Shown: positions 2,920 through 44,201 of the stretch, one piece after another
How positions within the stretch are numbered: position 1 is the stretch's first letter
Layout of the letters: every line of letters begins with the position of its first letter
Origin: a virus
Reading direction: 5' to 3' (one strand)
Length of the DNA: 48,053 nt
Virus record (IMG/VR): IMGVR_UViG_3300005056_000004
Notes under the pieces: generated by a model
Seen by the model: the letters and a program-made list of their open reading frames with translations, nothing else
Databases searched by the model: none
Told to the model about the DNA's origin: nothing
Translations under genes and position numbers: made by a program

Positions 2920-3052
2920 GAGTTAGGTAGCAATTTTAAAGAGAGCCTTACCCCTATTTGTGTCGCTCTTTAAGATGTGCTATCTACCTTAGGGTATAGG
3001 CAAAAGAAAAAAAATGTTTCACGACATATAAACTAAAAACAAAGGAATACGA

Positions 3053-5863: not shown

Positions 5864-7735
5864 ATGTTTGAAACTACTACACTCCTCCGAGAATGGTTAA
5901 GAGAGTCTGCTCGACATTTTAAAGATACGAAAGCTTTTAGTAAAAAGGCAAGAGACTATAGAAATGGGGAGCAGCTTGATGACTTCATAAAAACAGTTCT
6001 AGCGAATCGTGGACAGCCTGAGCAGTATGAGAACCAGATAGCAAAACATAACAACTCCATACTCGGATATAAAAAAGAGCGAGAGATAGACATAAGACTT
6101 TTTGGTAGACAACAAGCTGATAGAGCCACAGCAAATATGCTCAACTCAATCATAAAAGCCATCACTCAAGTGAGCGACTATGAGAGTGAAGTTGAAGCCC
6201 TTGATGATGAGTTATCACTAGAGGGTGTAGCCATTGCAGAACTTACTATAACTGCTAGTGGAGAGTTTGATGAGTTTGGTAGAGAGCATAAAGACGTGGA
6301 AGTTACACAAGTTCCAGAAAAAGAGATGTTTCTTGACCCATTTTCCCGAGGGAAAAACTACAATAAAGACGCTCGTTATATTAGCAGATGTTTTTGGATA
6401 GATAAAGAGGACCTTTACGGACTAGGCTTTGATGAAAAAAAGATAGAAGAGTGTAGTAACTCAAACTACTTAGCTGACATACTCGATAATGACCTCTATG
6501 CTGATGAGACTATAAGAAAAAGAGTCTTACTCTCTTACACTTGGTATAGAAAGTATGACAAAGTTGCAAAAGAAGAGAAGTTTTACTTTGTGTTTTGGAG
6601 CGGAGAAACTATTTTGATGCAAGGTGAGTCTCCTTTTAACTTCAAAGGTTTTCCTTATGAAGTAGAGTTTTTAAACAGAGACTTTACTGCTAAGATAAAG
6701 TACTGGGGGCTTTATAAAGACATACTCCCTCTACAGGATCACATAAACTATGCGAAGTTGAGAATGCAAAATATGCTTGCAAACAACAAAACGCTTGTAG
6801 AAAAAAATGCAATTATAGACAATGACATAGAAGCTTTTAGAGACGAGTTCTCACCTGATGATGCAATTGTACTGGTAGAGAATCTTAATGGAATAAAAGA
6901 TGTAAGACAAAATGCACAGATACAGCAGATACTAAACATAATAGTCGATAACAGAAATCAGATAAGAGACTTACTAGGCACAAATGATGAGATGCAAGGT
7001 GTAGCTAACAATAGAATGAGCGGTGTAGGACAAGAGCAGAGAATCCAAACAGCACTCGTAGGTCACTCTCATTTTATGGGAAGCAGTGACAAACTTCAAA
7101 AGCGTATCGTCAAGAAAATGGTAAAGTTCATAGAACAGTACTATGACTCTCAAAGAGTTGTGAGCATAATAGACGAAGACTATATGCAGTCCTACATCAC
7201 TATGAACGAGAGTGTGAAGAATGACTATGGAAGTGTAGACTTTGAAGTGCTGGCAAATGGAAAAGTAAAACCAATCGCTAACAATACAATAGCAGTTGGA
7301 AAGTATGATTTAATCTTCTCTGCAAAACCTAAGAGCAAGTCTATGAGTTCTGAGCGACTTAGGCAAAATGTAGAGCTACTAAAAGTGCTTCAAAGTACAA
7401 ACCCTGAACTTGTGCAGTATTTAGTGCCTGACATATTAAGAGATAGTGATTCGCCAAGCGCTTTAAAGATAAGACAAATCATAGAACAAAATGAAGCTAG
7501 TGCTAAGGACTCGCCACAAGCACAGGCTATTCAGAAGTTGCAAGAAGCAAACCAACAGTTAGAGATGAGGCTCAAAGGCTCACAAGTAAATCTCAATGAC
7601 GCTAAGGCTAAATCAATGATAGACAAAAACAAGATAGACCTGCAAAAAGCCTTTAGCACTTCTCTTATAGCTAAAGATGCAAACAGAGCTAAACACAATA
7701 AAAATCAACTAGATGCAATGAAAGGAGTGAGATAA
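5864..7735 (+). CDS. Portal protein (putative)
   Basis: 623 aa is portal-sized. N-terminal ARDYRNGEQL resembles the Y-x-G-x-Q motif common near portal N-termini. Charged coiled C-terminal tail, and it lies immediately upstream of genes for internal or ejected proteins. Confidence 0.6.
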   Translation: MFETTTLLREWLRESARHFKDTKAFSKKARDYRNGEQLDDFIKTVLANRGQPEQYENQIAKHNNSILGYKKEREIDIRLFGRQQADRATANMLNSIIKAITQVSDYESEVEALDDELSLEGVAIAELTITASGEFDEFGREHKDVEVTQVPEKEMFLDPFSRGKNYNKDARYISRCFWIDKEDLYGLGFDEKKIEECSNSNYLADILDNDLYADETIRKRVLLSYTWYRKYDKVAKEEKFYFVFWSGETILMQGESPFNFKGFPYEVEFLNRDFTAKIKYWGLYKDILPLQDHINYAKLRMQNMLANNKTLVEKNAIIDNDIEAFRDEFSPDDAIVLVENLNGIKDVRQNAQIQQILNIIVDNRNQIRDLLGTNDEMQGVANNRMSGVGQEQRIQTALVGHSHFMGSSDKLQKRIVKKMVKFIEQYYDSQRVVSIIDEDYMQSYITMNESVKNDYGSVDFEVLANGKVKPIANNTIAVGKYDLIFSAKPKSKSMSSERLRQNVELLKVLQSTNPELVQYLVPDILRDSDSPSALKIRQIIEQNEASAKDSPQAQAIQKLQEANQQLEMRLKGSQVNLNDAKAKSMIDKNKIDLQKAFSTSLIAKDANRAKHNKNQLDAMKGVR

Positions 7736-8730
7736 TGGGATGGTATGATGCTTTTAAGAGTAATGTTGATTCTACTGCTTCAATAAACAAGATAACAAGT
7801 AATAGTGGGAGTGCAGGAAAATACTTTGGAGATGCCTTTAAAGATTTTGGTAAATCTTTACAAGACTCTGAAAATCAAAAGATAAAAGATGACGTTGCCG
7901 ATGCAAATATAAAAGCATCTCAAGCTCATACCGCTCTGTACACTGCTCAGAACACTCAGGCTGCGATAGATAATGAGTTTAACAATAACAAGAGAAAAGA
8001 CCAGGCAGAGACTAAGAAACTAGATGATGCTTTTAAGAGAGACTTTGCAAGTACAAGTGACATCAACTACCAAAAATCTCTCTTAGAATTCGAGAAGCCA
8101 GATGGTGAGTTTGACTCATCTGTATCAAGCAGTGCATTTGAGTATGCAAGTAAAAAGATAGCAAGTGATGAACTCTCAGCTCAAAAGAACTTTAACGATG
8201 AAGCTGTCAAAGTTTCTGTCGATGGCGGGTATGCTGACTTCTCAGCATTTAAAACTGCAAATGCTGACTCTCAACTTTTTAAAAACACTGATGGCACAAC
8301 TATGAAGTCTATAGAGAAGTATTTTAATGATAAAGACAGTACGCTTAAAGATATAAAAACTCAACAAAAACTTCTTGCTAAAGACAAGCAAATATATGCT
8401 CTTACTAGTTCTAAGAAAAATAAAGGTTTTGTATATGATGAGAATACAGATACAAAAATAGCAACACAGGTAAAGACTGCTATGGGGATGGATGCTCCAA
8501 ACTTTAACTTTGATGACACCACAAAAGTCGAGTATCAAAATGCTGTATCCGGCTCTGCAAAAATATCTAAAAAGTATAATCTTGAACCCTCTTTAGCTAT
8601 TCATGTTTATCAAAATCCAGATATGTATGACTTTACAGCAGATAATAAAGTGATACAGAAAAAGAGTCCAAAAAAGAGTCCAAAAAAGGCAGAGAACAAA
8701 GACCGTCTAAATATATTCAAAAGGTCTTAA
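7735..8730 (+). CDS. Virion-associated protein, function unknown
   Basis: 331-aa ORF whose start overlaps the portal stop (ATAATGG). C-terminal KKSPKKSPKK repeat. Confidence 0.5.
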   Translation: MGWYDAFKSNVDSTASINKITSNSGSAGKYFGDAFKDFGKSLQDSENQKIKDDVADANIKASQAHTALYTAQNTQAAIDNEFNNNKRKDQAETKKLDDAFKRDFASTSDINYQKSLLEFEKPDGEFDSSVSSSAFEYASKKIASDELSAQKNFNDEAVKVSVDGGYADFSAFKTANADSQLFKNTDGTTMKSIEKYFNDKDSTLKDIKTQQKLLAKDKQIYALTSSKKNKGFVYDENTDTKIATQVKTAMGMDAPNFNFDDTTKVEYQNAVSGSAKISKKYNLEPSLAIHVYQNPDMYDFTADNKVIQKKSPKKSPKKAENKDRLNIFKRS

Positions 8731-8796: not shown

Positions 8797-11700
8797 ATGC
8801 CATCTCCAACAAACAAGTTTTTAACACAGATGAGAGAAGAATATCCTGAGTATGTTGATGTTGATGATACTACACTAGCTAAGGCTTACGGAAAAAAGCA
8901 CTATGCTTACTTAGAAGAAGATGTGTTTCTTGAGAAAGTAGGTCTTCACCAAAGTACTCTACTTGATGATGCTATAGACCTAGTAACTCCTACTGAAAAA
9001 CCATTCACACAAGATAACAATACAACTGAACCATCTCTCCACGATGCTATAGCTCCAAATGTTAATGGTAGTATGCCAGCTACTACAAAAGAACAAGAGA
9101 AGCCTTTTAGCGTTTCATCTCCTGCATTTACTCAAAGTGAAGATCTCACAACAACAATGACATCATCTCAAATGAAAGACTCTATAGCTAACGAAACGAG
9201 CCTACTGCTTGGTGAGGGAAAAGACTTTGAAAATCCTGACAGAGAGGATTATGAACTTGGTAAAAGAGTAGTTAATGCTACAAACAAAAGTACCTCTGGT
9301 ATGGCTAAGGGTCTTTTTCGCGTTATGGGTTCTACTGCATACACTCTCATTAGACCTTTTTCACAAGAGACTGCTACAAACATATATGAATCATACATGG
9401 GTTCTGCAAAGAAAATATCTGAGTATGTATATGAAGATAACAAGTTTGATGTAAAAAGTACTCACACTCCGAACTCTATAAAAGAAGCTGTTAAGGCTGG
9501 TGGAATATTTGATATAGACACAGTTCAAGAAGTGCTACTGTATGGCTTAGACACTACCATAGAATCTGTTCCAGATATGGCAGAGATAGCTACAATGTTC
9601 CCTGCTTATGTTCTCGGAAAGGCTGAAAACAGTGCTTTAGAGAGAGCAAAAAACGATGGAAGAAAAGAAGCGACTAATGAGGACTTTTTAAGAGTTTTAC
9701 CCACTGCGACTACGAGTGCTCTACTTGATAAAATGGGGTTAGAAGCTACAACAAGTAAAATATTTAACGATCTTGTGAAAACTACAGCAGCAGGCGGTAT
9801 AAAAGCAGCTTCAATAGAGATAACTAAAAAAGTGAGAAACGGTACACTTACTGAAGCTGTTACAGAAGCAGGACAAACTGTTATTGATAAGATGGGTGAA
9901 GAGATAGGAACCAAGAGTGGGCTAAGTTCAGTTGATAAGTATGCAGAAGAAGCAGCTTGGGCTTCACTAGCTGGCGGTATCGGTGGTGGCGCTATGAGTG
10001 GAACTACTGCGACAGGTACTATAATCTTTAACGAGTACTCAAAAGCTGATAAAGAAGCACAGAGAGAAGCTTACATACAAGACTCTTACAACAAGCAGAT
10101 GCTAGGGAGTTCTTCTTTAACATCTAGCATAGATGACAATAGATACGTAGTCTTTAAAAACAATCTTGATACAAAAGTAAAAAATATACAGACAGAGTTT
10201 CAAAACTTAGTGATAAACAATCCAGGCTTAGCAGTTCCAGTAGAAGCTGTTAATGATATAGCAGTTCAAAAAGCAGTAGTGCAAACTGCTAAAGAAGATG
10301 GACTCAATGTAAGTGATAATAATGGGCTCAATGCAATAGATGCTGGGTTTAAAGAGCTAGAAGCAGAGATAGGAACTCTTGATGAAGAGATGACTCCTAA
10401 GGGTAGTGAAGTTGTTAATGTTGAGCCTATACCAATAGTTAAAACTCCTATAGATACTGCAAGACTTACACAACTGCAAGAGACTCCAGCGGATGAACTC
10501 ACGGTTGATGAGCAGTTTGAATTAGAAGATTTACAAATAGAAGAACAACAAATCCAAAAGTTAGGAAATGATGAAACTGCTCTTGTAGATGCAAACTCTA
10601 AACTTTTTCAAGCAAACAAGAGTGAAGAAGCTAAAATAAAAAGCCTTGGTAAAGATGAAATAGCAAGTGATGAACTTACTGCACTCATAAAAGATGGTTT
10701 TACTTTTGTAAAAAAAGGTGACTCATTTGAGAATACGACTACAAGTATAGGCGATAGATACATTAAATATGATGAGCAAGGTAATAAACTCACAAAGTAC
10801 TCTACTGGAGATATGGAAGTCGAATACAGTGATGGAGAGTCTGTTATGTTACACCCTGATGGAACACATACATCATCTTTAGGCTTTGGAGGTGGCATTA
10901 CAACTGCACAAGATGGAACTCTTCTAAGTGATGAGGAAGCTATTTTAGATGAAGTAAAAAGTCGATTTATCACAAACAACAATTCAATAAAAACTATTCA
11001 AGTAAAAGTACCGACTATAGACGAAGCACGAGACAAACAAAGAGAGTCTAAAAAATCTGCACCGACTCACATAAGTGAGCAGTTAGCACTTAATGAAAAA
11101 CTTTATGCAAATGATGAGACAGCACTTGCAGATGCAAATGCTAAACTTTTTCAAGCAAACAAGAGTGAAGAAGCTAAAATAAAAAGCCTTGGCAAAGATG
11201 AAATAAAAAGACTTGATGATGAGTACTTTACTGAGAAATATAGTGATGTGGAAGTACAAAGAGCTTATGACTTTTTACCTACCGCTACAAAACAGAGTTC
11301 AGCAGTTCAAGCTTCACTAGACTTTGCTGGAACTCAAAACCCTCTCTTTAATACAAAGGGAAGTGAAGAGTATATAGTTCCAACATGGGCGAAAGACATA
11401 GTGAGCGATACACTTAGATATGATGATATAATTACAGCTGTTACGGATGCTAAGAATGGTAATCCTACAGATACTTCTTTTAGAGTTATGGATGCACTTC
11501 ATAAGGCTGGTGACCCTCACTTAGAAAATGAGATTAAGAGATTTGATGAACTATCTCAAAGATGGGATTTAAATGAGTTAGAAGAAGCAGAACAATCAGA
11601 ACTTGCAAAAGTTTTAGACAAACACTTAACAGGAGTAGAAGATGGCACAATCACAAGAGCAGAAGAATCGACAAGAGCTACACAAGATGAAACCGCAGAT

Positions 11701-14700
11701 AATGAAGTTGTACAAGCAGTTACAGAGCAAGGGTTACAGCAAACAAGAAGCACAAAAGAGAGTGATAGAAGTCTACCCGATAGCTTCGCAGCTCAAAAAC
11801 CTTTAGTCTTTGATACTGCAAAAGTATATGACACAAGAGGAATAAATCACGAAAACCCTCACAATAAACTCTCTGAAATAATTAAAAAAGATGTAGCAAG
11901 ATATGTAAGTCAGTTGGCTAAAAATCTTGGTTATGATTTTGAGATAGATAAGAAAGGTAAGAAAAAAACTTTTAATGGAGTAAATAATAATATTGCAGTA
12001 GTTGGTGGTAGTATAAGCTTCAAGCTTTTTAAACCAAATAGTGATGCTGGGATATATGTGAGCCTTAACTATGACTCCTCTATGACTGATGATGGAAGAT
12101 ATGATACTTATTTTTTAAATGATAAAAGCTTAGGACATTTCTTTAGAACAATAAATGGAATAGATGATCATACAGGTGGAAAAAACAATTGGTTTAAAAC
12201 CGAGGACCTAACAAGTGATACTTTTGTAAATAAAATAATATCTTTAGTTGAAGCACAAGAAAAACGAGATAGTGATATAATAAATAAAGAGGTAAAAGAA
12301 GATGAAAAACTTGAACAACCAACAGAAAGAGATGATGGACGAGATATACTCGAAACCTTATCAACAGTGGATGATGGGAAAAGTTCGGGACAATCTCGAA
12401 GAGTTCAACCCGACTCTATACAAGGAACTGATAGCAAAAGCCAAAAACAAAGCATTGCACCACTACCAGATACAACAGGTAGACAAAGCAACTCAGATGA
12501 TGGAAGAGTTAGTGATGAGCGATTATCAGCTTCACGAAGCGAAGTCGATGGCGGAGAGGGAACACATTCTACAGTTTCAAGATTAGAAGAGACAGCAGAT
12601 AACTTTGAAATAGAAGATGCCCTGGGAAAAGGTGGTCTTAAAACTAAGTTTAAAACAAATATTGAAGCTATAAAAATAGTTAAAAAAATCCAAACAAAAA
12701 ACTATAAACCTACCAAAGCAGAAAAAACAATCCTCTCTCAGTATGTTGGATGGGGTGGACTCGCTAATGCCTTTGTTCGACCCAACGGTTCAATAACTAA
12801 GGGATGGGAAAAAGAGTCTAAAGAACTTAAAGAGTTACTTAGCGATGATGAGTACAAAGAAGCTAAGGCTTCAACTCTTAATGCTCACTACACAAGCAAA
12901 GAGATAGTTGATGCTATCTGGAGCGGTGTCAAACAGTTTGGCTTTAAGGGTGGAAAAGTTTTAGAACCATCTGTAGGCGTTGGTAATTTTTTCGGTATGA
13001 TGCCAACTTCTCTTAAAAGTTCTACAAAGCTGTATGGCGTTGAACTTGATGGAATAACTTCTACTATAGCTCAAACACTCTATCCAAAAGCTACTATACA
13101 AAACAAGGGTTTTCAAGATGTAGAACTGAGCAATGACTTCTCTTTAGTCATAGGAAACCCTCCTTTTGGTTCTGTAAAACTTTTTGATAAAAACAACAAA
13201 CACTTAAAAGATATGTCAATACATAACTACTTCTTTGCTAAAAGCATGGATGCACTTGAAGAGGGAGGAATCCTTGCTATGGTTGTGAGCAATGGCTTAA
13301 TGGATGCAAGTAGCAGTGCTACAAGAGAGTATCTTGGAAGTAAAGCAAATCTTCTTGGAGCTATCCGACTTCCAAACAACGCCTTTAGTAAAAATGCAAA
13401 CACGGAAGTGACAACAGACATCATCTTCTTACAAAAAAGATATAAAAGTCAAGAATCAAACATAGATACATGGAGAGATATAGGAGAGATAAACGACACT
13501 CCTTTAAATCAATACTTTGTAAACAATGAAGCTATGATGCTTGGTAAGTGGGGGAAATATGGCTCTATGTATAGAGGGGATATGCCTGCTCTTGTTGCCT
13601 TTGAGGGTTCAACTAATACAGCAGGAATGCTTTTACCTGATGCACTTAAATCACTACCTTCAAACATAGTCACTCACGAGACTATCATAAAAGAGAACAC
13701 AAGCGAAGCTACATTTAGCGGTGATGTTTCCAAGGTAAGAGTCGGTGCTATGTATGTAAGTGATGGATATATATACAAGAGAGAACTAGATGTAGATGGA
13801 GAGCCACAAGTAAGGGAAGTTACTACAAAGCTAAACTCTAAAAATAAGATAGTAGAATATAAGCCTGCCGAGCTTTTAAAGATAAAAGGTATGATAGAAG
13901 TTGTATCAGTTGCAGATGAACTTAGAGTACTTCAACTTAATAACAGAGCAACTGATAAAGATTTAGCAAGAGCAAGAAAAGCTTTAAATAAGAGCTATGA
14001 AGCCTTTACTACAAAACACAAGTTTTTAAATAATGCTACAAACAAGAAGCTTTTTGAAGATGATGTGCGAAGTCCTTTTTTACTTGCACTTGAAAAACAT
14101 TATGATAAAGGTGTGAGTGCAGCAGTTGCTAAAAAAAGTGGGGAACTTGTCAAAAAAGAGTCTGCTGTTAAAGCAGATATATTTACTAAAAGAACTCAGA
14201 ACCCTTATGCCAGACCTACCAAAGCAGATAGTGAGCAGGATGCTCTTACTGTTAGTCTAAGTGAATATGGCTCTATTAACCTTGGATATATGCAAGAGCT
14301 TACCGCTAAAAGCGAAGCGGAGTTAATCTCTGCACTTGATGGATTTATGTATGATGATGTTGATGCTGGATGGGTAACTAAAGAGGAGTACTTAAGTGGA
14401 AATGTAAAAGAGAAGTTTGCACTCACGGATAATGTTAAGTACAAAAAAGCACTTCAAGAAGTGATACCAAAAGACATAGAAGCTATGGATATATCCATAA
14501 CACTTGGTGCTGGATGGGTTCCTAAAGATATTATGGCTGATTTTGTTGAGTTTATAACCGGTGATGATGCAGCAAAAGTAACTCTTACACCTCACAATGC
14601 TAGATGGACAATAAGTGCAAGAGTTACAAGTGCTAAAGCTTCGCAATGGGGTACTAAAAGAAGAACTGCTACGGAGATACTAGAGCAGACTATGAATCTT

Positions 14701-17700
14701 AAACAGATGAAAGTGCAAGACAATCACGGTACATCTTCTCAACCACAACTCGTTACAAACATAGATGAGACAACAGCGGTCCAAGAGAAACAAGAGGTTT
14801 TAAAAGAGGAGTTTAAAGAGTGGATTTTTAAAACAGCAGATAGAAGAACTGAGCTTGCAGAGATATATAATAGAGAGTTTAATACTAAGACTCTCCGTGA
14901 ATACGATGGTTCACATATAAACTTCGTAGGTAAGTCTGAGATGATAAACTTACGACAGCACCAAAAAAATGGAGTATGGAGAATGTTGCAAGGCGGTACG
15001 GTTCTCTTTGACCATACCGTAGGAACAGGGAAAACTTTTACAGCCATAGCTGGCGTAATGGAGCTAAGAAGAACAGGTAAAGCAAATAAGCCTTTAGTAG
15101 TTGTACCTAACCACTTAACTTCGCAATGGGGTAAAGAGTGGATGGAGTTATATCCAAATGCAAATATACTTGTACCAACGAAGGCAGACTTTAGTGCTGC
15201 AAGAAGAAAACTACTTATGAGTAAAATAGCTACTGGAGACTATGATGCGATAATTATAGCTCACTCTCAACTTACTTCTATCCAAAACGACCCTGAGTTT
15301 GAGACAAGCTTTATAGAAGATGAGATAACGAGAATCCAAACTTCTATAGATATGCTCAAAGAAGAAGATGGGAAAAGCAGAAGTGTTAAAAATGCAGAGG
15401 ACTCTAAGGCAAAACTAGAAGAGAGAATAAAAAAACTAAACGATATGCAAAGAGATGATAATCTTAACTTTGCAGAACTCGGCATAGATGCTCTCATCCT
15501 TGATGAGGCACATGAGTTTAAAAATCTTACTTACACTACTGGACTTCAAGGAGTAGCTGGACTTGGAAACCCTAAGGGGAGCAAAAAAGCTTTTGACCTT
15601 TTCATAAAGACTCAAAATATTTTAGAGAAGACTAATGGGAACAATGTAGTGTTTTTAACAGGGACACCCATCTCTAACACTATTGCTGAGATGTTTACAA
15701 TACAGAGATACTTAGACTATAGTGGACTTCAAGATAAAAATCTTGATGTGTTTGATGCTTGGGTAAAGCAGTATGCTGAGATAGTAAGTGACTGGGAGCT
15801 TAGTCCTAGTGGGAAGTATAAACTCAACACCCGCCTTAGAAAGTTTAATAATATGCCTGAACTTATAACAGAGTATAAACAGTTTGGCGATGTTGTTACA
15901 AGAGAAGATATACCGGCACTTCCAATCCCTCTGATAAAAGGCGGTCGTGCTGCAAACATAGTAGTTGAGAGAAGTGATGCACAAGCTGCATACATAGGAG
16001 TAGCAGATAAAAAGGGTAAATATCCTGAGGACTCTTTAGTTTACAGAAGTGAACATTTGCCAAAAGGTAAGCCAAAAAAAGGGGATGACAATATGCTCTC
16101 GATCATGGGGCTTGCTAGAAAAGTAGCACTCGACATGAGACTCATAGACCCTAGTTATGAAGATAACCCTGATAGCAAAGTGAATCTTACAGTTAAAAAC
16201 ACTTTTGAAATTTATAAGATGTGGAACGCTAAAAAAGGTACACAGTTAATCTTTTGTGATTTAAGTACACCTAAGGGTGCAGTAGCAAAAGAGAAAGCGA
16301 AGATAGAAGCACTTATAAAAAATGCAGAGAGTGCAGATGAAAACGTAGCAGAAAAAGCACAAGCTGAACTTGATAAACTTAACCCTGACGACATAGATGC
16401 TCTTAACTCAAAGTTTAGCGTTTATGATGACATCAAAGCAAAGCTAATAGCTAAGGGGATAAAAGAGAGTGAGGTCGTGTTTATTCACGATGCAAAAACT
16501 GACTTGCAAAAGCAAGAACTTTTTGCAAAAGTGAAGAGTGGAAAGATAAGAGTGCTGATAGGTTCAACTTCAAAGATGGGTTCAGGCATGAATGTTCAAG
16601 ATAAACTTGTAGCACTGCATCATATAGATGTACCTTGGAGACCATCAGACCTAGAGCAGAGAGAGGGTAGAATAATCAGACAGGGGAATGAGTTTTTTAA
16701 ATCTGACCCAGAAGGTTTTGAAGTAGAGATATTTCGTTATGCTACTAAAAACACACTTGACAGTATGATGTGGCAGACCATAGAAGCCAAGGCAAACTTC
16801 ATAGCACAGTTAAGAGCTGGGAATCTACTTGATAGAGAAGTAGAAGATGTCAGCGGTGAAGCTATAAACGCGGCAGAGATGAAAGCTATGAGTAGCGGAA
16901 ATCCTCTAGTATTTGAAGATATGAAACTTAAAAAAGATATAAAAAAGATGGAAGCTCTCAAAAAGTCTCATGACAGAAATCAGTATGATTTAGAGGACAA
17001 GATAAAAAAATCTACTACACTGCTAAGTGAGAGTAAATCTATTTTAGATGCTTATGCTCTTGATGCTAAGTTGTCAAAAAAACTTCCTAAAAAGTTTATT
17101 ATGAACATAAATAAAAAAGAGTATGAAAGCAGAGAAGACGCTGGTAAAGAGATACTACACATCATGCTTAAAACTCCAGAGAGAACTTCTAAGCTTATAG
17201 GTGAGATAGGTGGGTTTAAAGTTTATGTTGAGACTACAGGTAAAGGTTTGAGTCTTAGTGATACAGGGATAGTTACTCTTAGTGGGTCACAAGATTATGA
17301 GTTTAGCTTCAACATGGAAGATCAGAGCTATAGCGGACTTACTCTCAAGCTGGAAAACACAATCAAAAACATAGCTACTAAGATGCAAGAAAAAGAGTTG
17401 GATACAGAGTATGTTAAAGAGCAACTACCACAGCTTAAAGAACAGGTAGGAGAGTTTAAAAACTCTAATAAGCTTGATGAGTTAAGACTAAGACAAAAAG
17501 AAGTATTAGCAGAACTTAGAAAAAAAGATGATGAGCCAACAGATACAGTTGATGAGATGAGCACCGGTGAAGTTTTAGAAATGATAGAGACTTTAGAGGG
17601 TAGAGCAAATGAGAGTTTTATGAAAGTACCTACAAAAAAAGAGGTTAAAGATACAGCTGCAAATAATCACTACTCACGAGTGAATGGTTTTGATGAAGCC

Positions 17701-20700
17701 GGTGTAAACTATGTACCTACTTACAAAACAAGTGGACTTCCTCATAGACCAGCAACAGGAACTATAAGCATAGGCAACAAAGAAGTGTCACTTCCTACTT
17801 ATGAGAAAGCAATGAATGCTGATACTATCAGAGTTTATCTTAGTGAAATTATTGGTAATCGTTTGTATCAAGCCAAGCTAAAAAATAAAAGTGCTTTAGG
17901 AAAGTACAAGAGAGATGACAGTGCAATTCGTGTAAAGAACTATAGCGATATTGAAGTAATGGCTCACGAGATGGCTCACTACTTAGACTTTTTTCATAAC
18001 AACAAGAGTAAAGCTGCTCCTGATAGTTTCTTTAGAAGAGAGATACTAAAAAACAAAGAAGAGATAAAAGCTCTTAGCTACACTACAGACCCTAAAAATG
18101 TAATCAGCGAGGGATTTGCTGAGTTTACTCGTTTGTGGCTTACAAACTACAACAGCTTAACTCTTGTAGCCCCTAACATGATAAAAGATTTTGAAGCTAA
18201 ACTCTCTAAAGATAAAGAGCTAAATAAGAAAATGACACTACTTCAAGAGTCTATGCACCAATACTACTATCAAGGTGCTGGCGTTGCTAAGTATGTGGGT
18301 GGAGAGCTTACTCCTACTGCAAAGAAGATACAGAGAAGTCAAGCAGAGATAGGTAAAAACTTTCGCCAAAAGTCTATAGATAGAATCCACTCTATCAAAA
18401 GAATAGAAGCTGAGATAAAAGGTGATGTCGCAGTAAATGCTAGAGATAGTGCTTATAAATCTTTACAGCTTGTAAATGGATATAGCTCTATTATGTATAG
18501 CGCTATGAACATAGGGACACCGACTGTAAATGTAGATGGAGATATCTCTTACAGTGGAAAATCTTTAAATGATATATTTGCTCCTGCTACTACTGTAGAT
18601 GAAAACAGAGTGAAGCTTATGGAGAACTACTTTGTAGCGAGACGTGCTAACGAACTCATGGAACAAGGTCGTGAGAACTTAATCACTCAAGAAGATATAG
18701 ATGCAGACTTAGGACTTGCAGAGATATATCCAGAGTTTGAGACAATCTTTACAGAGTATCAAGAGTTTAACGATGCAATGCTAGACTTCTATGTAGATAT
18801 GAATCTCATCACAAGTTCACAAAGAGAGAACTTCCAAGAGATGAATAAAGACTATGTACCCTTTCATAGAATCAACGAAAGCGTTCAATACGATGGTGTG
18901 GCGACTTCAAAAATAGGGCAAAGGCTTACAGGTGGCACATCATCTTTAAACTCTATCATGGAGAACATTATCAATGGTGTTGAGAGTAACATCAAAGAGG
19001 CTTTAATTTCCCGAGGGAAATCTATGTTTTATGAAATGCTTGAAGAGAGTGGCATGGGTGGCGTTTATGCGACTAAAGTTTCGGCTGATAGTAAAGTAGT
19101 ACAAGACAACTTAAAGGACCAAGCGAAAAAGGTAGCTACTGTTATGGCTATGATGGATATAGCTGTTTCTAAAGATGGAATGATACTTAGTGGAAAAAGT
19201 GATGCAACAGAGATTTATGATGTAAGCGAGATAGAAGAGAATCTTCTTACTAATCCTAAAACGATGGAAGTATGGACTCATGGACACCCTCCAACTTCTG
19301 CTGATGGCTATATAGATAGTGTAATCATAAATGATAAAGTAGTTTACTTTGAAACTAAAGATATAGGGATTGTTGATGCTATGACTTCTTTTAGTGGTTC
19401 TCACTATGGAACAGTCGTAAGTGGTTTAATGTGGATGAAAAATGTAATGACATGGAACATTACAAATAATCCTCTCTTTTATCTTACAAACTTTGTTCGT
19501 GATACGGTTAGTGCATCTGTCTTATCTAAAAATGGATTTATACCTGTGATAACTTCACTCAATGGAACATATCACTTTATCACTCGTTCTAAAACATATA
19601 AAGAGTTTATGGCTAGTGGTGCTGGTTATGGAACGAGAAGAACATCTTTAGGTGGAGACATAGAAGCTATGAAGATGCTCAATGTAAAAAGAAGTCTCTC
19701 TGTTCTTGATAGAGTTGTAGATGCTTTAGAGTACGGTGCTGATATGTTTGAGTATGGTACTCGTGTTGGAGAGTTTAAACTAGCACAAAACTCTGGAAAA
19801 AGTAACACTCAGTCTGCATTTGAAGCTAGAGAGATAAGTACTGACTTTGCTATCAAAGGTAGTGATAAAACTATAAGTGGGTTTATGTCAACTGTTCCTT
19901 TTATGAAAGCTGCAATACTTGGACTTGATAAAACTGCTCGTAGGATATTTTCTCTTAATGGAGAGATGAAAGTTAGTAATGCTTTAAAATTCAGAAATCA
20001 ATTAGGAGAGCTGCAAACTCATAAGTTGAAAATATATGCTACTGGTGGGATGATGGCTGGTCTTACTCTCGCCCTTTGGTTTAACAATAAAGACGATGAG
20101 AGATACAAGAGACTTACTCGTGATGCTAAGATGATGTACTGGCACTTCTTTATAGGAGAGAAACATATAAAAGTTCCTCGTCCTTATGATATAGGATTTG
20201 TGTTTTCAACTGTACCTGAGCTAATGGCTGATGCAATTTACACTAAAGAGGGAAAAGAAGCTGCTAAAGATTTTGCTTGGGGTGTTAAGAATATGTTTAG
20301 CATTGGAGATATTAGTGGACTGTTCCAGCCTATACTTGATGATATGACTAACACAAATTGGACTGGCTCACCTATAGTTCCTGCTCGTATGCAAAACCTT
20401 GATGATTTGAGTGATCAGTATATGAACTCCACTCCACTTGTATATAAAATGTTTGGAAAAATTACTGGAGCGAGTCCAATAATGACTAAGCATTATGTAA
20501 ATGGTTACTTAGGTTTAACTGCTCGCATGATGGAAGAGGTTACTGAAAATATACTTTGGAACTCTAAAGAGTGGGGAGCAAGACCTTTTAGTAAAAATGC
20601 TGCTGAGTTTATGGTGTCGCGTTTTGTAGCAAAAGAGCAACCATCTCGTACTATTTATAGTGAGAAGTATTATGAGTTAGTGAAAAAAGCAAGTGCTGTT

Positions 20701-20997
20701 AAAAATAGCTATGACCTTAAGAGTAAAAAAGCATTTATAGATGGTGGCAATGATGTAAAAGAGTATATGAGTTCTAAAGAGAAGCAAGCTCATGTTCAGA
20801 TAAGTAGAATGCTTTCTTCTTATTCTAAAGAACTTGCCAAGGTTAAGAACAGTGTTGAGCATATTACTTATAATAAAATGTTTTCTCAATCTCAAAAAGA
20901 AGAGAAAATAAATGCAGCTTATGCAGCTAAGACATCCGCGTTTGAAAAGATAGTTACAAGTGTAAATAAAAAACTTGATGAAGTTGAGGGGAAATAA
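8797..20997 (+). CDS. Giant 4,066-aa polyvalent protein with N6-adenine DNA methyltransferase, SNF2/DEAH helicase, HExxH metallopeptidase motif and a large uncharacterised C-terminal region. DarB-like, probably a virion-packaged or ejected protein
   Basis: Uninterrupted 12.2-kb ORF. MTase motif I is LEPSVGVGNFFG and motif IV is GNPPFGS. Helicase motifs are GTGKTFTA (I), LILDEAHEFKN (II), LTGTPISN (III) and QREGRIIRQGN (VI). The peptidase motif is AHEMAHY. It follows the portal gene. Confidence 0.85.
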   Translation: MPSPTNKFLTQMREEYPEYVDVDDTTLAKAYGKKHYAYLEEDVFLEKVGLHQSTLLDDAIDLVTPTEKPFTQDNNTTEPSLHDAIAPNVNGSMPATTKEQEKPFSVSSPAFTQSEDLTTTMTSSQMKDSIANETSLLLGEGKDFENPDREDYELGKRVVNATNKSTSGMAKGLFRVMGSTAYTLIRPFSQETATNIYESYMGSAKKISEYVYEDNKFDVKSTHTPNSIKEAVKAGGIFDIDTVQEVLLYGLDTTIESVPDMAEIATMFPAYVLGKAENSALERAKNDGRKEATNEDFLRVLPTATTSALLDKMGLEATTSKIFNDLVKTTAAGGIKAASIEITKKVRNGTLTEAVTEAGQTVIDKMGEEIGTKSGLSSVDKYAEEAAWASLAGGIGGGAMSGTTATGTIIFNEYSKADKEAQREAYIQDSYNKQMLGSSSLTSSIDDNRYVVFKNNLDTKVKNIQTEFQNLVINNPGLAVPVEAVNDIAVQKAVVQTAKEDGLNVSDNNGLNAIDAGFKELEAEIGTLDEEMTPKGSEVVNVEPIPIVKTPIDTARLTQLQETPADELTVDEQFELEDLQIEEQQIQKLGNDETALVDANSKLFQANKSEEAKIKSLGKDEIASDELTALIKDGFTFVKKGDSFENTTTSIGDRYIKYDEQGNKLTKYSTGDMEVEYSDGESVMLHPDGTHTSSLGFGGGITTAQDGTLLSDEEAILDEVKSRFITNNNSIKTIQVKVPTIDEARDKQRESKKSAPTHISEQLALNEKLYANDETALADANAKLFQANKSEEAKIKSLGKDEIKRLDDEYFTEKYSDVEVQRAYDFLPTATKQSSAVQASLDFAGTQNPLFNTKGSEEYIVPTWAKDIVSDTLRYDDIITAVTDAKNGNPTDTSFRVMDALHKAGDPHLENEIKRFDELSQRWDLNELEEAEQSELAKVLDKHLTGVEDGTITRAEESTRATQDETADNEVVQAVTEQGLQQTRSTKESDRSLPDSFAAQKPLVFDTAKVYDTRGINHENPHNKLSEIIKKDVARYVSQLAKNLGYDFEIDKKGKKKTFNGVNNNIAVVGGSISFKLFKPNSDAGIYVSLNYDSSMTDDGRYDTYFLNDKSLGHFFRTINGIDDHTGGKNNWFKTEDLTSDTFVNKIISLVEAQEKRDSDIINKEVKEDEKLEQPTERDDGRDILETLSTVDDGKSSGQSRRVQPDSIQGTDSKSQKQSIAPLPDTTGRQSNSDDGRVSDERLSASRSEVDGGEGTHSTVSRLEETADNFEIEDALGKGGLKTKFKTNIEAIKIVKKIQTKNYKPTKAEKTILSQYVGWGGLANAFVRPNGSITKGWEKESKELKELLSDDEYKEAKASTLNAHYTSKEIVDAIWSGVKQFGFKGGKVLEPSVGVGNFFGMMPTSLKSSTKLYGVELDGITSTIAQTLYPKATIQNKGFQDVELSNDFSLVIGNPPFGSVKLFDKNNKHLKDMSIHNYFFAKSMDALEEGGILAMVVSNGLMDASSSATREYLGSKANLLGAIRLPNNAFSKNANTEVTTDIIFLQKRYKSQESNIDTWRDIGEINDTPLNQYFVNNEAMMLGKWGKYGSMYRGDMPALVAFEGSTNTAGMLLPDALKSLPSNIVTHETIIKENTSEATFSGDVSKVRVGAMYVSDGYIYKRELDVDGEPQVREVTTKLNSKNKIVEYKPAELLKIKGMIEVVSVADELRVLQLNNRATDKDLARARKALNKSYEAFTTKHKFLNNATNKKLFEDDVRSPFLLALEKHYDKGVSAAVAKKSGELVKKESAVKADIFTKRTQNPYARPTKADSEQDALTVSLSEYGSINLGYMQELTAKSEAELISALDGFMYDDVDAGWVTKEEYLSGNVKEKFALTDNVKYKKALQEVIPKDIEAMDISITLGAGWVPKDIMADFVEFITGDDAAKVTLTPHNARWTISARVTSAKASQWGTKRRTATEILEQTMNLKQMKVQDNHGTSSQPQLVTNIDETTAVQEKQEVLKEEFKEWIFKTADRRTELAEIYNREFNTKTLREYDGSHINFVGKSEMINLRQHQKNGVWRMLQGGTVLFDHTVGTGKTFTAIAGVMELRRTGKANKPLVVVPNHLTSQWGKEWMELYPNANILVPTKADFSAARRKLLMSKIATGDYDAIIIAHSQLTSIQNDPEFETSFIEDEITRIQTSIDMLKEEDGKSRSVKNAEDSKAKLEERIKKLNDMQRDDNLNFAELGIDALILDEAHEFKNLTYTTGLQGVAGLGNPKGSKKAFDLFIKTQNILEKTNGNNVVFLTGTPISNTIAEMFTIQRYLDYSGLQDKNLDVFDAWVKQYAEIVSDWELSPSGKYKLNTRLRKFNNMPELITEYKQFGDVVTREDIPALPIPLIKGGRAANIVVERSDAQAAYIGVADKKGKYPEDSLVYRSEHLPKGKPKKGDDNMLSIMGLARKVALDMRLIDPSYEDNPDSKVNLTVKNTFEIYKMWNAKKGTQLIFCDLSTPKGAVAKEKAKIEALIKNAESADENVAEKAQAELDKLNPDDIDALNSKFSVYDDIKAKLIAKGIKESEVVFIHDAKTDLQKQELFAKVKSGKIRVLIGSTSKMGSGMNVQDKLVALHHIDVPWRPSDLEQREGRIIRQGNEFFKSDPEGFEVEIFRYATKNTLDSMMWQTIEAKANFIAQLRAGNLLDREVEDVSGEAINAAEMKAMSSGNPLVFEDMKLKKDIKKMEALKKSHDRNQYDLEDKIKKSTTLLSESKSILDAYALDAKLSKKLPKKFIMNINKKEYESREDAGKEILHIMLKTPERTSKLIGEIGGFKVYVETTGKGLSLSDTGIVTLSGSQDYEFSFNMEDQSYSGLTLKLENTIKNIATKMQEKELDTEYVKEQLPQLKEQVGEFKNSNKLDELRLRQKEVLAELRKKDDEPTDTVDEMSTGEVLEMIETLEGRANESFMKVPTKKEVKDTAANNHYSRVNGFDEAGVNYVPTYKTSGLPHRPATGTISIGNKEVSLPTYEKAMNADTIRVYLSEIIGNRLYQAKLKNKSALGKYKRDDSAIRVKNYSDIEVMAHEMAHYLDFFHNNKSKAAPDSFFRREILKNKEEIKALSYTTDPKNVISEGFAEFTRLWLTNYNSLTLVAPNMIKDFEAKLSKDKELNKKMTLLQESMHQYYYQGAGVAKYVGGELTPTAKKIQRSQAEIGKNFRQKSIDRIHSIKRIEAEIKGDVAVNARDSAYKSLQLVNGYSSIMYSAMNIGTPTVNVDGDISYSGKSLNDIFAPATTVDENRVKLMENYFVARRANELMEQGRENLITQEDIDADLGLAEIYPEFETIFTEYQEFNDAMLDFYVDMNLITSSQRENFQEMNKDYVPFHRINESVQYDGVATSKIGQRLTGGTSSLNSIMENIINGVESNIKEALISRGKSMFYEMLEESGMGGVYATKVSADSKVVQDNLKDQAKKVATVMAMMDIAVSKDGMILSGKSDATEIYDVSEIEENLLTNPKTMEVWTHGHPPTSADGYIDSVIINDKVVYFETKDIGIVDAMTSFSGSHYGTVVSGLMWMKNVMTWNITNNPLFYLTNFVRDTVSASVLSKNGFIPVITSLNGTYHFITRSKTYKEFMASGAGYGTRRTSLGGDIEAMKMLNVKRSLSVLDRVVDALEYGADMFEYGTRVGEFKLAQNSGKSNTQSAFEAREISTDFAIKGSDKTISGFMSTVPFMKAAILGLDKTARRIFSLNGEMKVSNALKFRNQLGELQTHKLKIYATGGMMAGLTLALWFNNKDDERYKRLTRDAKMMYWHFFIGEKHIKVPRPYDIGFVFSTVPELMADAIYTKEGKEAAKDFAWGVKNMFSIGDISGLFQPILDDMTNTNWTGSPIVPARMQNLDDLSDQYMNSTPLVYKMFGKITGASPIMTKHYVNGYLGLTARMMEEVTENILWNSKEWGARPFSKNAAEFMVSRFVAKEQPSRTIYSEKYYELVKKASAVKNSYDLKSKKAFIDGGNDVKEYMSSKEKQAHVQISRMLSSYSKELAKVKNSVEHITYNKMFSQSQKEEKINAAYAAKTSAFEKIVTSVNKKLDEVEGK
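12600..13450 (+). other. Methyltransferase module of the giant protein (gamma-class N6-A MTase motifs)
   Basis: GxGxF motif encoded around 12961-12990. NPPF is encoded at 13155-13166. Confidence 0.8.
14940..16700 (+). other. SNF2-family helicase module of the giant protein
   Basis: Walker A (VGTGKT) is encoded at 15019-15036 and DEAH at 15502-15513. Motif VI QREGRIIRQGN lies near 16655-16690. Confidence 0.8.
17965..17979 (+). other. HEMAH (HExxH) zinc-metallopeptidase motif in the giant protein
   Basis: The codons cac gag atg gct cac are read directly. The context is EVMAHEMAHYLDFFH. Confidence 0.5.
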
Positions 20998-21668
20998 TGG
21001 CACACGATATAGAGATACGATTTAGATGTAGAGCTTTGTTTGAAGTTATGAATATGAATTTGAGTGACATAAGAAAACAAGAGAGTGTCGGACTCTCTAC
21101 TCTTAGCGACTGGAAGAATGATGATCGTGAAGAGTATGGCGGCATCTGGTTACAGGGGTGCAAATCTGGAAAGATAGAACAGACTACTGAGCAACTGAGA
21201 AAAGAGCTAGAAGCCACTTCTGTTTATGATGCAATGAAAAAGGAGTTGAATAAATTTTACGGAGTATCAAAAAGCGGTTCCCTCGATGTAAGCGGAATGC
21301 TTGAAGTCGGGAACGATAATTCAGAGATACAAGCACGAGCTGAAACAGACATGACACTTCTTGCCTCTGTAGGAGCTGACTACTTTGACTCGCAACTTTT
21401 TAAAAACTCGATGCTTAGTTCTATTGTTCTGAGTAATCAAGTGAAAAAAGACCCAACAAAAGTCAAGCAGTCAGATATAAAAGCAAGTTCTGAAATTCAC
21501 AAGATAGCTAAAGAGGCTAGATTTGGCAAAAGTCCTGAGACTGTTATCTTTAATGCCAATGGCAATTATAGTCCTGAAGAGTTAAATGACCTCACTATTG
21601 AACAGCTTGAAGAATTAGCTAAGAAAGAGATGGCTGGTGTTATTGATGTTGAGAAAGTAGAAAAATAA
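20997..21668 (+). CDS. HTH-like DNA-binding protein (possible small terminase or regulator)
   Basis: 223 aa with a start overlapping the giant ORF stop (TAATGG). N-terminal NLSDIRKQESVGLSTLSDWKND looks like a helix-turn-helix. The functional call is weak. Confidence 0.3.
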   Translation: MAHDIEIRFRCRALFEVMNMNLSDIRKQESVGLSTLSDWKNDDREEYGGIWLQGCKSGKIEQTTEQLRKELEATSVYDAMKKELNKFYGVSKSGSLDVSGMLEVGNDNSEIQARAETDMTLLASVGADYFDSQLFKNSMLSSIVLSNQVKKDPTKVKQSDIKASSEIHKIAKEARFGKSPETVIFNANGNYSPEELNDLTIEQLEELAKKEMAGVIDVEKVEK

Positions 21669-21985: not shown

Positions 21986-23059
21986 GTGTCGATAAATAAA
22001 GATGATTATCCATTTCAAATTGAAACTGGGTTATGGGCAAATAAAAAATATACAGTTTTTTTATATAATTTCAGATTTGAAAAAAAGAGGTATCGAGCAC
22101 TTATAGACTTAACAGACAAAGTGGGTTGGAACAAAAAAGATAAAATCTTTACTGCTCGTGCTGAACTTATGAAGATAAAGAACGGAAAGAAAGATGCAGT
22201 GCTTAGTGACAAAGTAACTCTTGATGAGTTTATGAAAAGCTTTTTTGAACTTCGACCAGATACAAACAATACTAAAACTCGTAAGAGCCATTATGATAGA
22301 TACGTTAGTCCTATTTGTGGAATGAAAAGAGTTGTTGATATTCGGCAGCTACACATAAAACAGAGTATAAAGAGTCAAGAGGAACTAGGTCTTGCACCTC
22401 GAACTGTTAAACAAACGCTCGAAGCACTCTCCCCTGCTTTTAAAAGTGCTATTGCAAACAGGCTTATATCTTACAACCCTCTTGATGGTATAGTTATAAA
22501 GCTCCCAAAAACTAAAAAAATAGTAAGTGAAGCTGGGGTCGAACTTAGAAAGATATATAATGCGATATTTGCAGAGTTTGGAGATGATCCTTTTTATCTC
22601 TCACTTTTTCTCTTTGCACTTCAAGGTAGGAGGAGAGGAGAAATACTTACTCTTAAGTGGGAAGATATAAGTATAGACAACTCTTACTACATACTTCGTA
22701 ACACAAAGAACAATGAAGAGCAAAAGATTTTTCTAGCTGAGATTATCAAAGACAATTTAAAAGATATACCTCGTGTAAGTGACTGGGTTTTTACATCTCG
22801 TAGGACTGGCTCACATCTTGTTGATATTCGCAAGGTTACAGGCAGGCTAAAAAAGAGACTCAAAGATGAGAATTTTGGCATACACTATTTGAGAAATGTC
22901 ATTGTTTCGGCTATGGCTGAGAAAGGTTTTGATAGTATGCATCTTAGCGGTGCTTTAGGTCACAACGACCCTAACACTATAAAGAAGTATCTCACTATGA
23001 ACTATTTGAAGTCTAGTGAGATGGCTAGTGGGGTTATTGATGGGATTGTTAAGAAGTAA
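21986..23059 (+). CDS. int: Tyrosine integrase
   Basis: 357 aa with a GTG start. The C-terminal catalytic region has RRRGEILTLKW (Arg), HYLRNVIV (HxxR) and LGHNDPNTIKKYL (His and Tyr). It is next to a tRNA-derived att core. Confidence 0.85.
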   Translation: MSINKDDYPFQIETGLWANKKYTVFLYNFRFEKKRYRALIDLTDKVGWNKKDKIFTARAELMKIKNGKKDAVLSDKVTLDEFMKSFFELRPDTNNTKTRKSHYDRYVSPICGMKRVVDIRQLHIKQSIKSQEELGLAPRTVKQTLEALSPAFKSAIANRLISYNPLDGIVIKLPKTKKIVSEAGVELRKIYNAIFAEFGDDPFYLSLFLFALQGRRRGEILTLKWEDISIDNSYYILRNTKNNEEQKIFLAEIIKDNLKDIPRVSDWVFTSRRTGSHLVDIRKVTGRLKKRLKDENFGIHYLRNVIVSAMAEKGFDSMHLSGALGHNDPNTIKKYLTMNYLKSSEMASGVIDGIVKK

Positions 23060-25137: not shown

Positions 25138-25543
25138 TGCTATCCACCTGAACATGAAGACCACAACCACTAAACTCAATATATCTGGCAGTATCACTAT
25201 CTGGTATCTTGTCATTCAAACACGATAAACCATTTAGATAATGGCAGTTATGACAATTTCTTAATATGTTAGTTTCTAACTTGTATAAGATCTCTTTAGG
25301 TGTGTAGTCACAAAACAAGTCTGCTATCTCATTTATACTATCAAAGCTTTCGCCATTGTCAAAGCTTATTTCTAGTGTTGACAAGTCTATATCAAAACCA
25401 TAATCTCCGCAATCAATACGGAACAATGGATCTTCCTTTGTAGCATGATTTTCAAGCATACCTAGAACATATTTTTTATCATCGATTGGTCTTTTCTTTG
25501 CTTTATATATCGGTATAGTATTTTCATCTCTTCTTAAGCTCAT
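25130..25543 (-). CDS. Hypothetical early protein (CHNCH cysteine/histidine cluster)
   Basis: 137-aa ORF overlapping the primase stop. Confidence 0.5.
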   Translation of the reverse strand: MSLRRDENTIPIYKAKKRPIDDKKYVLGMLENHATKEDPLFRIDCGDYGFDIDLSTLEISFDNGESFDSINEIADLFCDYTPKEILYKLETNILRNCHNCHYLNGLSCLNDKIPDSDTARYIEFSGCGLHVQVDSNE

Positions 25544-43637: not shown

Positions 43638-43649
43638 TAGGGAACGATA

Positions 43650-44054: not shown

Positions 44055-44087
44055 AACTCAATGGGCTACTGCATTAACATGATTTGT

Positions 44088-44201
44088 GTCTCGTGCCGAT
44101 TGTCGGTGGGAATTGGAATAACACTTCCAATGCTGGGGTTTTCGCTCTTAATTTGAACAATTATTCGGCTAATTCGAACAACAATGTTGGTGGTTTCGAC
44201 T
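44088..44201 (+). repeat. DGR template repeat (TR), noncoding
   Basis: Intergenic between avd and the RT gene. It contains 26 adenines, 12 of which are substituted in the VR. Confidence 0.9.

Follow-up and report, generated by a model that had tools for sequence, protein, structure and literature searches.

We analysed a 48,053-nucleotide (nt) stretch of viral DNA, IMG/VR virus record IMGVR_UViG_3300005056_000004 (the window), in which a single gene encodes a protein of 4,066 amino acids (aa). It is close to certain that this giant protein is a member of the DarB-like class of polyvalent proteins, which combine a methyltransferase and an SNF2 ATPase in one polypeptide. We further propose, with a probability of roughly 0.6, that it is packaged in the virion and injected into the host, and that it consists of a frame, formed by an N-terminal domain (D1) and a C-terminal module, and of an antirestriction cargo held between them.

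The giant gene and its DarB-type core

The giant open reading frame (ORF; 8797..20997, + strand) starts with ATG, has 0 internal stops and takes up 12,201 nt of the window (25.4%), which bears out the original prediction of a single uninterrupted 12.2-kb, 4,066-aa ORF filling a quarter of the genome. A possible ribosome binding site (AAGGG) is found ~7 nt 5' of the ATG, and scans for promoters and terminators gave matches no commoner than in shuffled sequence. The protein has a computed mass of 453.7 kDa and an isoelectric point of 5.4, and was divided into the following segments:

9439..10086, + strand (aa ~215-430): N-terminal domain D1 (phmmer; alignment A2)
10087..12288, + strand (aa 431-1164): acidic linker region, poorly conserved (charge; homologue mapping)
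10567-10665 and 11110-11208, + strand (aa 591-623 and 772-804): 33-aa (99-nt) direct repeat (self-comparison)
12289..17652, + strand (aa 1165-2952): DarB-type core (PHROG 10089)
aa ~1341-1560, + strand: gamma-type N6-adenine methyltransferase, predicted (motif I, nt 12973-12996; motif IV, NPPF, nt 13153-13173)
aa ~2041-2760, + strand: SNF2/DEAH ATPase (Walker A, nt 15022-15036; DEAH, nt 15502-15525; motif VI, nt 16657-16689)
17689..18306, + strand (aa ~2965-3170): predicted zincin-like metallopeptidase domain (conservation; AlphaFold2 topology)
18307..20994, + strand (aa 3171-4066): large helical C-terminal body (AlphaFold2 model; LPD38)
20044-20082, + strand (aa 3750-3762): hydrophobic helix GGMMAGLTLALWF, modelled just before LPD38
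20095-20580, + strand (aa 3767-3928): Pfam LPD38 (PF18857), E = 1.6e-32

The motifs of the methyltransferase are VGVGNFFG (aa 1393-1400) and GNPPFGS (aa 1453-1459). Motif I thus stands 60 residues N-terminal of motif IV, and this order, together with a Pfam Eco57I match (E = 1.9e-11), fits a gamma-type N6-adenine methyltransferase. Those of the helicase are GTGKT (aa 2076-2080), DEAHEFKN (aa 2236-2243), TGTPISN (aa 2288-2294) and QREGRIIRQGN (aa 2621-2631), and Pfam assigned ResIII, SNF2-rel_dom and Helicase_C to the core. All the motifs quoted in the original prediction were found where it had placed them; when we checked whether substitutions might have left the domains dead, the catalytic motifs of methyltransferase and helicase proved to be all intact.

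The family phrog_10089, annotated 'DarB-like antirestriction', matched aa 1165-2952 near full-length (E = 0, 1,998.7 bits). Compared by BLASTP with P1 DarB, the core was 29% identical in the methyltransferase (E = 7e-23) and 22% identical over 872 aa in the helicase (E = 5e-19), both parts being collinear and the catalytic motifs lining up. The ATPase lies C-terminal to the methyltransferase in the same polypeptide, as in the DarB-like class. On the evidence of the PHROG and P1 DarB comparisons, the protein was rightly described as a P1 DarB-type polyvalent protein with a methyltransferase, an SNF2 helicase and an HExxH motif.

A tblastn search with the core against 50,697 phage records matched 153 of them, all at less than 60% identity. 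The best match was Vibrio phage VvAW1 gp01 (3,640 aa, 49.5% identity), followed by phages of Erwinia (PEp14, Pavtok, Stean), Klebsiella (SopranoGao, LASTA), Ochrobactrum (POI1126) and Sinorhizobium (PBC5), and Ralstonia and Burkholderia phages were also among the matches. Megablast of the giant gene against the 50,697 records returned 0 matches; the phage is therefore new at the DNA level, and comparison at the protein level alone is informative.

Identification of the core as a defence or restriction-modification enzyme was tried and rejected. NCBIfam matches scored 28-54 bits against cut-offs of 500-1,100, and the DrmD and DpdE models matched the giant protein in part and far under their family cut-offs. 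PADLOC found just partial methyltransferase or helicase-lobe matches.

The source of the window is a metagenomic scaffold and the ORF contains a 99-nt direct repeat, so that a chimeric or frame-fused ORF had to be considered. We find this explanation barely credible. The identical protein is recorded on 4 contigs of 20-50 kb, which may be re-assemblies of one sample (one of them is ENA ERZ23495903 scaffold_387, 48,271 bp), and base composition and strand skews are even along the gene. Homologues of the same architecture, VvAW1 gp01 and several proteins of 3,700-4,100 aa, are collinear with full-length coverage, and giants of 3,921-4,118 aa occur in the same three-gene neighbourhood in two independent metagenome-assembled genomes (MAGs). 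On present evidence the ORF is not an assembly chimera.

A conserved frame with an exchanged cargo

About 1,000 residues at the C-terminus had been regarded as nameless. Besides LPD38, PHROGs 15406 and 18222 were matched by the C-terminal ~1,135 aa, and this C-module has homologues in 56 proteins of a large protein collection, many of them 1,200-1,950 aa long and recorded without any Pfam domain of a methyltransferase or helicase. In every mapped protein the module forms the C-terminal end. The HExxH motif previously noted, HEMAH at nt 17965-17979 (aa 3057-3061), is present, and is followed by D3064 and by an EGFAEF helix with E3105 and E3109. In an alignment of 53 C-module sequences (A1), H3057, E3058, H3061, D3064, E3105 and E3109 are each kept in at least 90%, and the corresponding HExxH, Asp at +3 and Glu helix are invariant in 19 further proteins (alignment A3). 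Among the zincin-like metallopeptidases of polyvalent proteins, Iyer et al. 2017 described a phage-type clade with an Asp three residues after HExxH, and they reported LPD38 solely in phage-type polyvalent proteins (PMC5512222). Modelling of aa 2932-4066 by AlphaFold2 with A1 reached a predicted local distance difference test (pLDDT) score of 85 and a predicted template modelling score of 0.83, and the elements follow in the order helix, three strands, HExxH helix and Glu helix, which is that of a zincin core. Conservation and model agree with the description of Iyer et al., and a zincin-like metallopeptidase domain is predicted in the giant protein.

Pfam, run on eight sub-segments at E up to 5, found nothing credible beyond LPD38, the HExxH region giving only a faint Peptidase_M91 match (E = 0.89). 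Among PDB sequences, neither the two terminal thirds of the protein nor the A1 profile found more than chance-level matches, and Foldseek found no match of the C-module model in the PDB at E <= 0.001. The best fold match there was weak (6d2s and 6cz6, 161 columns, probability 0.8, E = 0.39) and belongs to a Mycobacterium tuberculosis transcriptional regulator, which we take to be PrpR with its ImmA/IrrE-type zincin-like domain, a lead rather than proof. In BFVD the module had 65 fold matches, the TM-scores reaching 0.84 over 1,000-1,200 columns. Nearly every one is a later piece of a giant viral protein that the database stores in split form, and the sources go by different names (RelA/SpoT, type I methylase, LT_GEWL, PTXU04, Ralstonia phage Alix).

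The hydrophobic stretch GGMMAGLTLALWF, to which the original prediction had drawn attention, is present just before LPD38. We rejected it as a transmembrane segment: over 19 aa its Kyte-Doolittle mean reaches no more than 1.21, and the helix lies inside the confidently modelled globular body.

At the other end of the protein, ~1,250 residues had been said to match nothing. Searching for homologues of the N-terminal 1,164 aa by word index indeed gave 1 match; an exhaustive HMMER (phmmer) search gave 297, nearly all on aa ~215-430, and D1 is thus a domain found in ~300 protein clusters. It always lies ~120-460 residues from the N-terminus of the matched proteins, which are 1,500-5,400 aa long. 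Alignment A2 shows as invariant the motif S-x-P-D-M (aa 257-261) and R283, E353, T356, E357 and Q360, with a Gly-rich hydrophobic end at aa ~389-400. The AlphaFold2 model of D1, made from 13 sequences, was all-helical and unreliable.

The linker that follows has a net charge of -49 over its 734 aa and two small conserved islands (aa ~810-915 and ~945-1164). The two copies of the 33-aa repeat, whose starts are 543 nt apart, are nearly identical as DNA too, and aa ~620-800, around and between the copies, are largely missing from the two closest relatives. These observations suggest a recent insertion or duplication in this part of the ORF. A second HExxH (HENPH, aa 1018) falls in a region with few detectable relatives and was treated as chance.

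Nine segments of the giant protein were mapped onto 202 collected homologues, and the recurrent architecture was D1, a variable middle, the zincin domain and the LPD38 body. More than 30 homologues have D1, zincin and LPD38 without DarB, the smallest being of 1,585 aa, and 5 of 3,677-4,044 aa share the whole architecture of D1, DarB and C-module. In 19 DarB-less frame proteins, every one of them with LPD38, the middle contains GGDEF, an inorganic pyrophosphatase (InPase), a PBECR1 or PBECR3 nuclease, GNAT, a methyltransferase domain (MTS, Methyltransf_23) or LPD23.

The nearest relatives of the C-module are in one Sulfurimonas MAG and one Campylobacterales MAG, the latter an integrated prophage, since it is on a 422-kb contig. 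The giants encoded there are 3,921-4,118 aa long, and in both cases the neighbouring ORFs are of ~307 and ~225 aa. The C-module is 66% identical to these two and 40% identical to VvAW1 gp01, whereas the DarB core is 24-30% identical to the two, about the distance of P1 DarB, and 49% identical over 1,699 aa to VvAW1 gp01. Identity to the relatives jumps at ~aa 3000. Frame and core therefore have different nearest relatives, and the DarB core has been swapped into a conserved frame. This exchange fixes the module boundaries at ~aa 1165 and ~aa 2950-3000. The flanks had been thought of as possible sources of new effector activities; they are a conserved frame, which is in part already catalogued (LPD38, and the MPTase of Iyer et al. 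2017).

A 2,668-aa 'putative methyltransferase' of Vibrio phage 41E34.2 (11719-19725), from the Vibrio crassostreae podophages, shares both frame ends (N-terminal aa 12-372; C-module 32% identity). These podophages are absent from the DarB-core matches listed or tallied, and the protein may be another different middle within the same frame.

Proposed packaging and ejection, and rival explanations

The giant gene lies in the virion operon, because a P22-like portal gene precedes it. Its immediate neighbours are:

5864..7735, + strand: portal gene, P22-like (P22_portal, E = 1e-87; PHROG 156)
7735..8730, + strand: 331-aa ORF with no cysteine, between the portal and giant genes
20997..21668, + strand: 223-aa ORF downstream, whose start overlaps the stop codon of the giant gene (TAATG)

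The giant gene does not follow the portal gene immediately, as had been stated, but is separated from it by the 331-aa ORF. A methyltransferase, an SNF2 ATPase and a predicted zincin stand in one polypeptide with a portal gene one ORF upstream, which fits the phage-type polyvalent proteins of Iyer et al. 2017, where several unrelated enzymatic domains are joined and the gene lies beside portal and terminase genes. The 331-aa ORF had 0 family matches; in each of the two closest relatives a 307-aa ORF (32-33% identity) takes the syntenic place, and we regard the 331-aa ORF as a candidate partner or co-ejected protein. The 223-aa ORF, whose translation appears to be coupled to that of the giant gene, has a counterpart of 74% identity at the same position in both relatives and is so more conserved than the giant itself. 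Its sole family match is a weak one to DUF1804, at the N-terminus.

The giant protein is almost free of cysteine. It has a single one, C2487, in 4,066 residues (0.025%), against 0.67% in the other 41 ORFs (P = 4e-11), and 57 homologues pooled have 8 in 91,183 residues. None was found in VvAW1 gp01 (0/3,640), PTXU04_00025 (0/2,197) or HTVC204P gp40 (0/1,253), nor in the T7 proteins gp15 (0/747) and gp16 (0/1,318) or in N4 gp50 (0/3,500). Cysteine suppression has been described as a conserved feature of ejected Schitoviridae proteins and has been tied to passage through the periplasm (Lokareddy et al. 2024, PMC11445570).

Several homologues and related proteins point in the same direction. In VvAW1 the gp01 gene is preceded by genes annotated 'DNA ejection', and in the T7-like Pelagibacter phage HTVC204P the LPD38 homologue gp40 (1,253 aa) lies between internal-virion and tail-fibre genes, which is the slot of T7 gp16. 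JC1 gp69 (4,515 aa) was detected in CsCl-purified virions with 51 unique peptides and the second-highest score (PMC9144972). Phage phi24B gp47, with LPD38 and a metallopeptidase, is abundant in virions and invisible by cryo-electron microscopy, and was proposed as an ejection protein by its authors (10.64898/2026.04.10.717836). Knock-down by CRISPRi-ART found PTXU04_00025 to be critical for efficient infection (10.1101/2023.09.18.558157); this protein has LPD38 and no DarB, and is homologous to the C-module of the giant (E = 1e-53, TM-score 0.60).

From these data we propose that the giant protein would be packed in the capsid and would leave through the short tail loosely folded, as the N4 virion RNA polymerase is thought to do (PMC13434306). 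The frame, D1 plus the ~1,100-aa zincin/LPD38 module, is conserved across many short-tailed phages; it may guide the protein's entry into the capsid and its exit by way of the tail, and is perhaps itself an ejection or pilot protein, probably an essential one. The DarB dyad would act in cis on the incoming genome and shield it from restriction, most probably of type I, judging by the homology to P1 DarB. Following a proposal of Iyer et al. (PMC5512222), the methyltransferase would be carried along the DNA by the SNF2 motor. As for the zincin domain, it may split the polyprotein into its working parts, or its substrates may be envelope or host proteins.

A number of points weigh against this proposal. 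The phage is known from a metagenomic contig alone; its sequence shows the domain content, the intact catalytic motifs, the mosaic of frame and cargo, the cysteine suppression and the place in the virion operon, and we infer packaging, ejection, essentiality of the frame and antirestriction from homologues and from the literature. Antirestriction has been shown experimentally for P1 DarB only, and P1 DarB is 22-29% identical, lacks the frame and is not cysteine-poor. No link in sequence or fold was found between the frame and T7 gp14-16, N4 gp50-52 or the P1 region examined, and hidden Markov models (HMMs) of A1 and A2 had 0 matches in the T7, N4 and P1 loci searched. D1 yielded no usable model (pLDDT 43.8). 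Pfam does not recognise the zincin domain, and the peptidase activity is solely a prediction. The protein has no segment of transmembrane grade, its highest 19-aa Kyte-Doolittle mean being 1.35.

The original prediction had seen the protein as an accessory antirestriction passenger, that is, dispensable cargo whose ends act as a capsid-targeting signal, with ejection left to separate proteins. This would agree with the homology to P1 DarB, which is non-essential in P1 (PMC5512222), and other cysteine-free ORFs of the virion operon, such as that at 7735-8730, could be the real ejection proteins. However, a frame of ~1,300 aa and more is far larger and better conserved than a targeting signal needs to be, the DarB-less protein PTXU04_00025, of the same frame type, is critical for infection, and an LPD38 protein occupies the gp16 slot of a T7-like phage. 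We therefore regard the passenger as possible but unlikely. Improbable, in our view, is a role as genome-import motor, in which the frame would be anchored at an envelope channel, SNF2 would reel in the genome with ATP and the methyltransferase would mark the DNA, replacing the transcription-driven DNA entry of T7 and N4. SNF2 enzymes are translocases of double-stranded DNA (PMC5512222), P1 DarB acts in cis and the helicase motifs are intact, all of which would suit such a motor; but many frame proteins are without any ATPase, so import cannot generally depend on it, and experimental support exists for 0 homologues. A wider version, which we hold to be decidedly unlikely, would make the frame a widespread and essential family that podoviruses use for ejection or as pilots and that has no relation to the sets of T7, P22 and N4, the DarB versions being import motors that immunise the DNA on entry.

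Finally, the protein might be a cytoplasmic enzyme that is not packaged, for example a replication helicase, or a restriction-modification or defence methyltransferase-helicase by which the lysogen is protected. The integrase gene just downstream could be read in this way, and so could the models of DrmD, DpdE and orphan methyltransferases, which matched weakly and in part. Those matches are single-domain and far under their cut-offs (for example 34 bits versus 610), a nuclease or specificity domain was not found in the giant protein, the gene belongs to the virion operon on the same strand, cysteine is suppressed and homologues occur in virions; this makes a cytoplasmic enzyme very improbable, and we retain the packaged and injected frame protein with its antirestriction cargo as the preferred explanation.

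Relation to known systems and meaning

VvAW1 gp01, annotated 'DarB-like antirestriction' and encoded at the end of the virion module, has methyltransferase, SNF2, HEMAH and LPD38 in the same order as the giant protein, and no cysteine. Over more than 90% of its length the core is 45-50% identical to those of the PEp14, Pavtok, SopranoGao, LASTA, POI1126 and VvAW1 giants. VvAW1 differs in its C-module, which is 40% identical, and in having no detectable match to the N-terminal 1,164 aa; its backbone also differs, capsid and flanking genes being unrelated, and no synteny of flanking genes was found between the window and VvAW1. Bcep22 gp75 and JC1 gp69, of Burkholderia/Ralstonia podophages, are DarB-like, occupy ~22% of the genome and stand at the end of the morphogenesis module, and one of the fold matches of the C-module belongs to Ralstonia phage Alix. 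These Bcep22-like giants are more distant in sequence, with different hosts and a different phage lineage. The mass spectrometry of Bcep22 is said to be by Gill et al., reportedly from 2011, and is cited in the JC1 paper.

P1 DarB (2,255 aa) has a methyltransferase and SNF2 dyad collinear with that of the giant, and is carried inside the head, giving DNA protection in cis against type I enzymes (PMC5512222). Antirestriction in P1 also requires DdrA, DdrB, Hdf and Ulx (PMC9144972). P1 DarB differs from the giant in lacking D1, zincin and LPD38, in having 9 cysteines, in its 22-29% identity and in belonging to a myovirus. Conversely, PTXU04_00025 of an Escherichia coli phage (2,197 aa) and HTVC204P gp40 share the LPD38 helical body, are cysteine-free and, like phi24B gp47 (2,811 aa), are without the DarB dyad. 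Phage phi24B gp47 was not recovered by tblastn with the C-module, so that its link to the giant rests on the domain annotation of its authors.

The virion RNA polymerases N4 gp50 and DEV gp71 are of similar size (~3,400-3,500 aa), cysteine-free and ejected via a short tail. Their layout is also like that of the giant, in that a helical N-terminal part leads to the enzymatic middle and a large helical region bearing a zinc/HExxH motif makes up the C-terminal part, but their cargo is an RNA polymerase and that of the giant a methyltransferase-helicase; Pfam found no RNA polymerase domain in the giant protein. No sequence or profile homology to N4 gp50 was detected, and in hhalign the probability of a match between A1 and the gp50 C-terminus was 0.6%. 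The suggestion that the giant takes the place of the N4 virion RNA polymerase is thus reasonable as a functional analogy, given size, lack of cysteine and layout, but has no basis in homology to gp50. The capsid, on the other hand, is not N4-like as had been supposed: N4 has capsid family PF25209, SU10_portal and virion RNA polymerase domains, the window has PF13252 and P22_portal, and BLASTP of the window capsid protein against that of N4 gave no match. A 139-aa ORF (37801-38220) is 38% identical to N4 gp49 (DUF2829), the only similarity to N4 among the virion-module ORFs compared.

The major capsid protein, of Pfam family PF13252, is nearest to the capsids of Helicobacter phages KHP30 and KHP40, its nearest solved relatives, and TerL is encoded at 38787-40343. 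Taken together, the Campylobacterota relatives of the frame, the 35% GC content of the window and the Helicobacter-phage-like capsid point to a Campylobacterota host. Phages of Vibrio and Erwinia, by contrast, have the DarB cores closest to that of the giant.

A tyrosine integrase (21986-23059) lies just 3' of the operon of the giant gene. Further along are a ParA/ParB pair (28331-29987) and a second, short tyrosine recombinase (30079-30672), and these genes, with the integrase, suggest that the phage is temperate or lives as a plasmid prophage. Also encoded are a DnaG primase (25524-27125) and a DnaB-like helicase (36331-37680). The region 42117-45343 is spanned by a diversity-generating retroelement. 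Its reverse transcriptase ORF is at 44297-45343 (RVT_1, E = 2.9e-15), its template repeat at 44088-44206 and its variable repeat at 43510-43628; the latter is the 3' end of a 506-aa tail-fibre-like ORF (42117-43637), 12 of the 15 mismatches between the repeats fall at template adenines, and a 134-aa ORF (43650-44054) occupies the avd position. Two ORFs of the virion module contain tandem repeats, one of 376 aa (40932-42062) with about ten copies of a 66-nt unit and one of 185 aa (47107-47664) with three copies of a 63-nt unit.

The novelty of the giant protein as such had been overrated. Its class is already described, by Iyer et al. 2017 (PMC5512222), by the mass spectrometry of Bcep22, by PHROG 10089 and by the JC1 paper of 2022 (PMC9144972), and JC1 and VvAW1 already offered examples of small podophage genomes of which one giant gene takes up 22-28%. 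What is new is the host lineage, of Sulfurimonas/Campylobacterales type, for a temperate phage, the explicit dissection into frame and cargo with a natural cargo swap, the family-wide suppression of cysteine outside the Schitoviridae, and a confident model of the ~1,100-aa module, which has no solved relative.

Giant polyvalent virion proteins make up 20-28% of some small phage genomes, and their mechanism has been demonstrated for P1 DarB alone. If our proposal is true, the frame would be a target for learning how half-megadalton proteins traverse a short phage tail, and, if it is an ejection device whose enzyme cargo can be exchanged, it would offer a natural scaffold for bringing proteins into bacteria.

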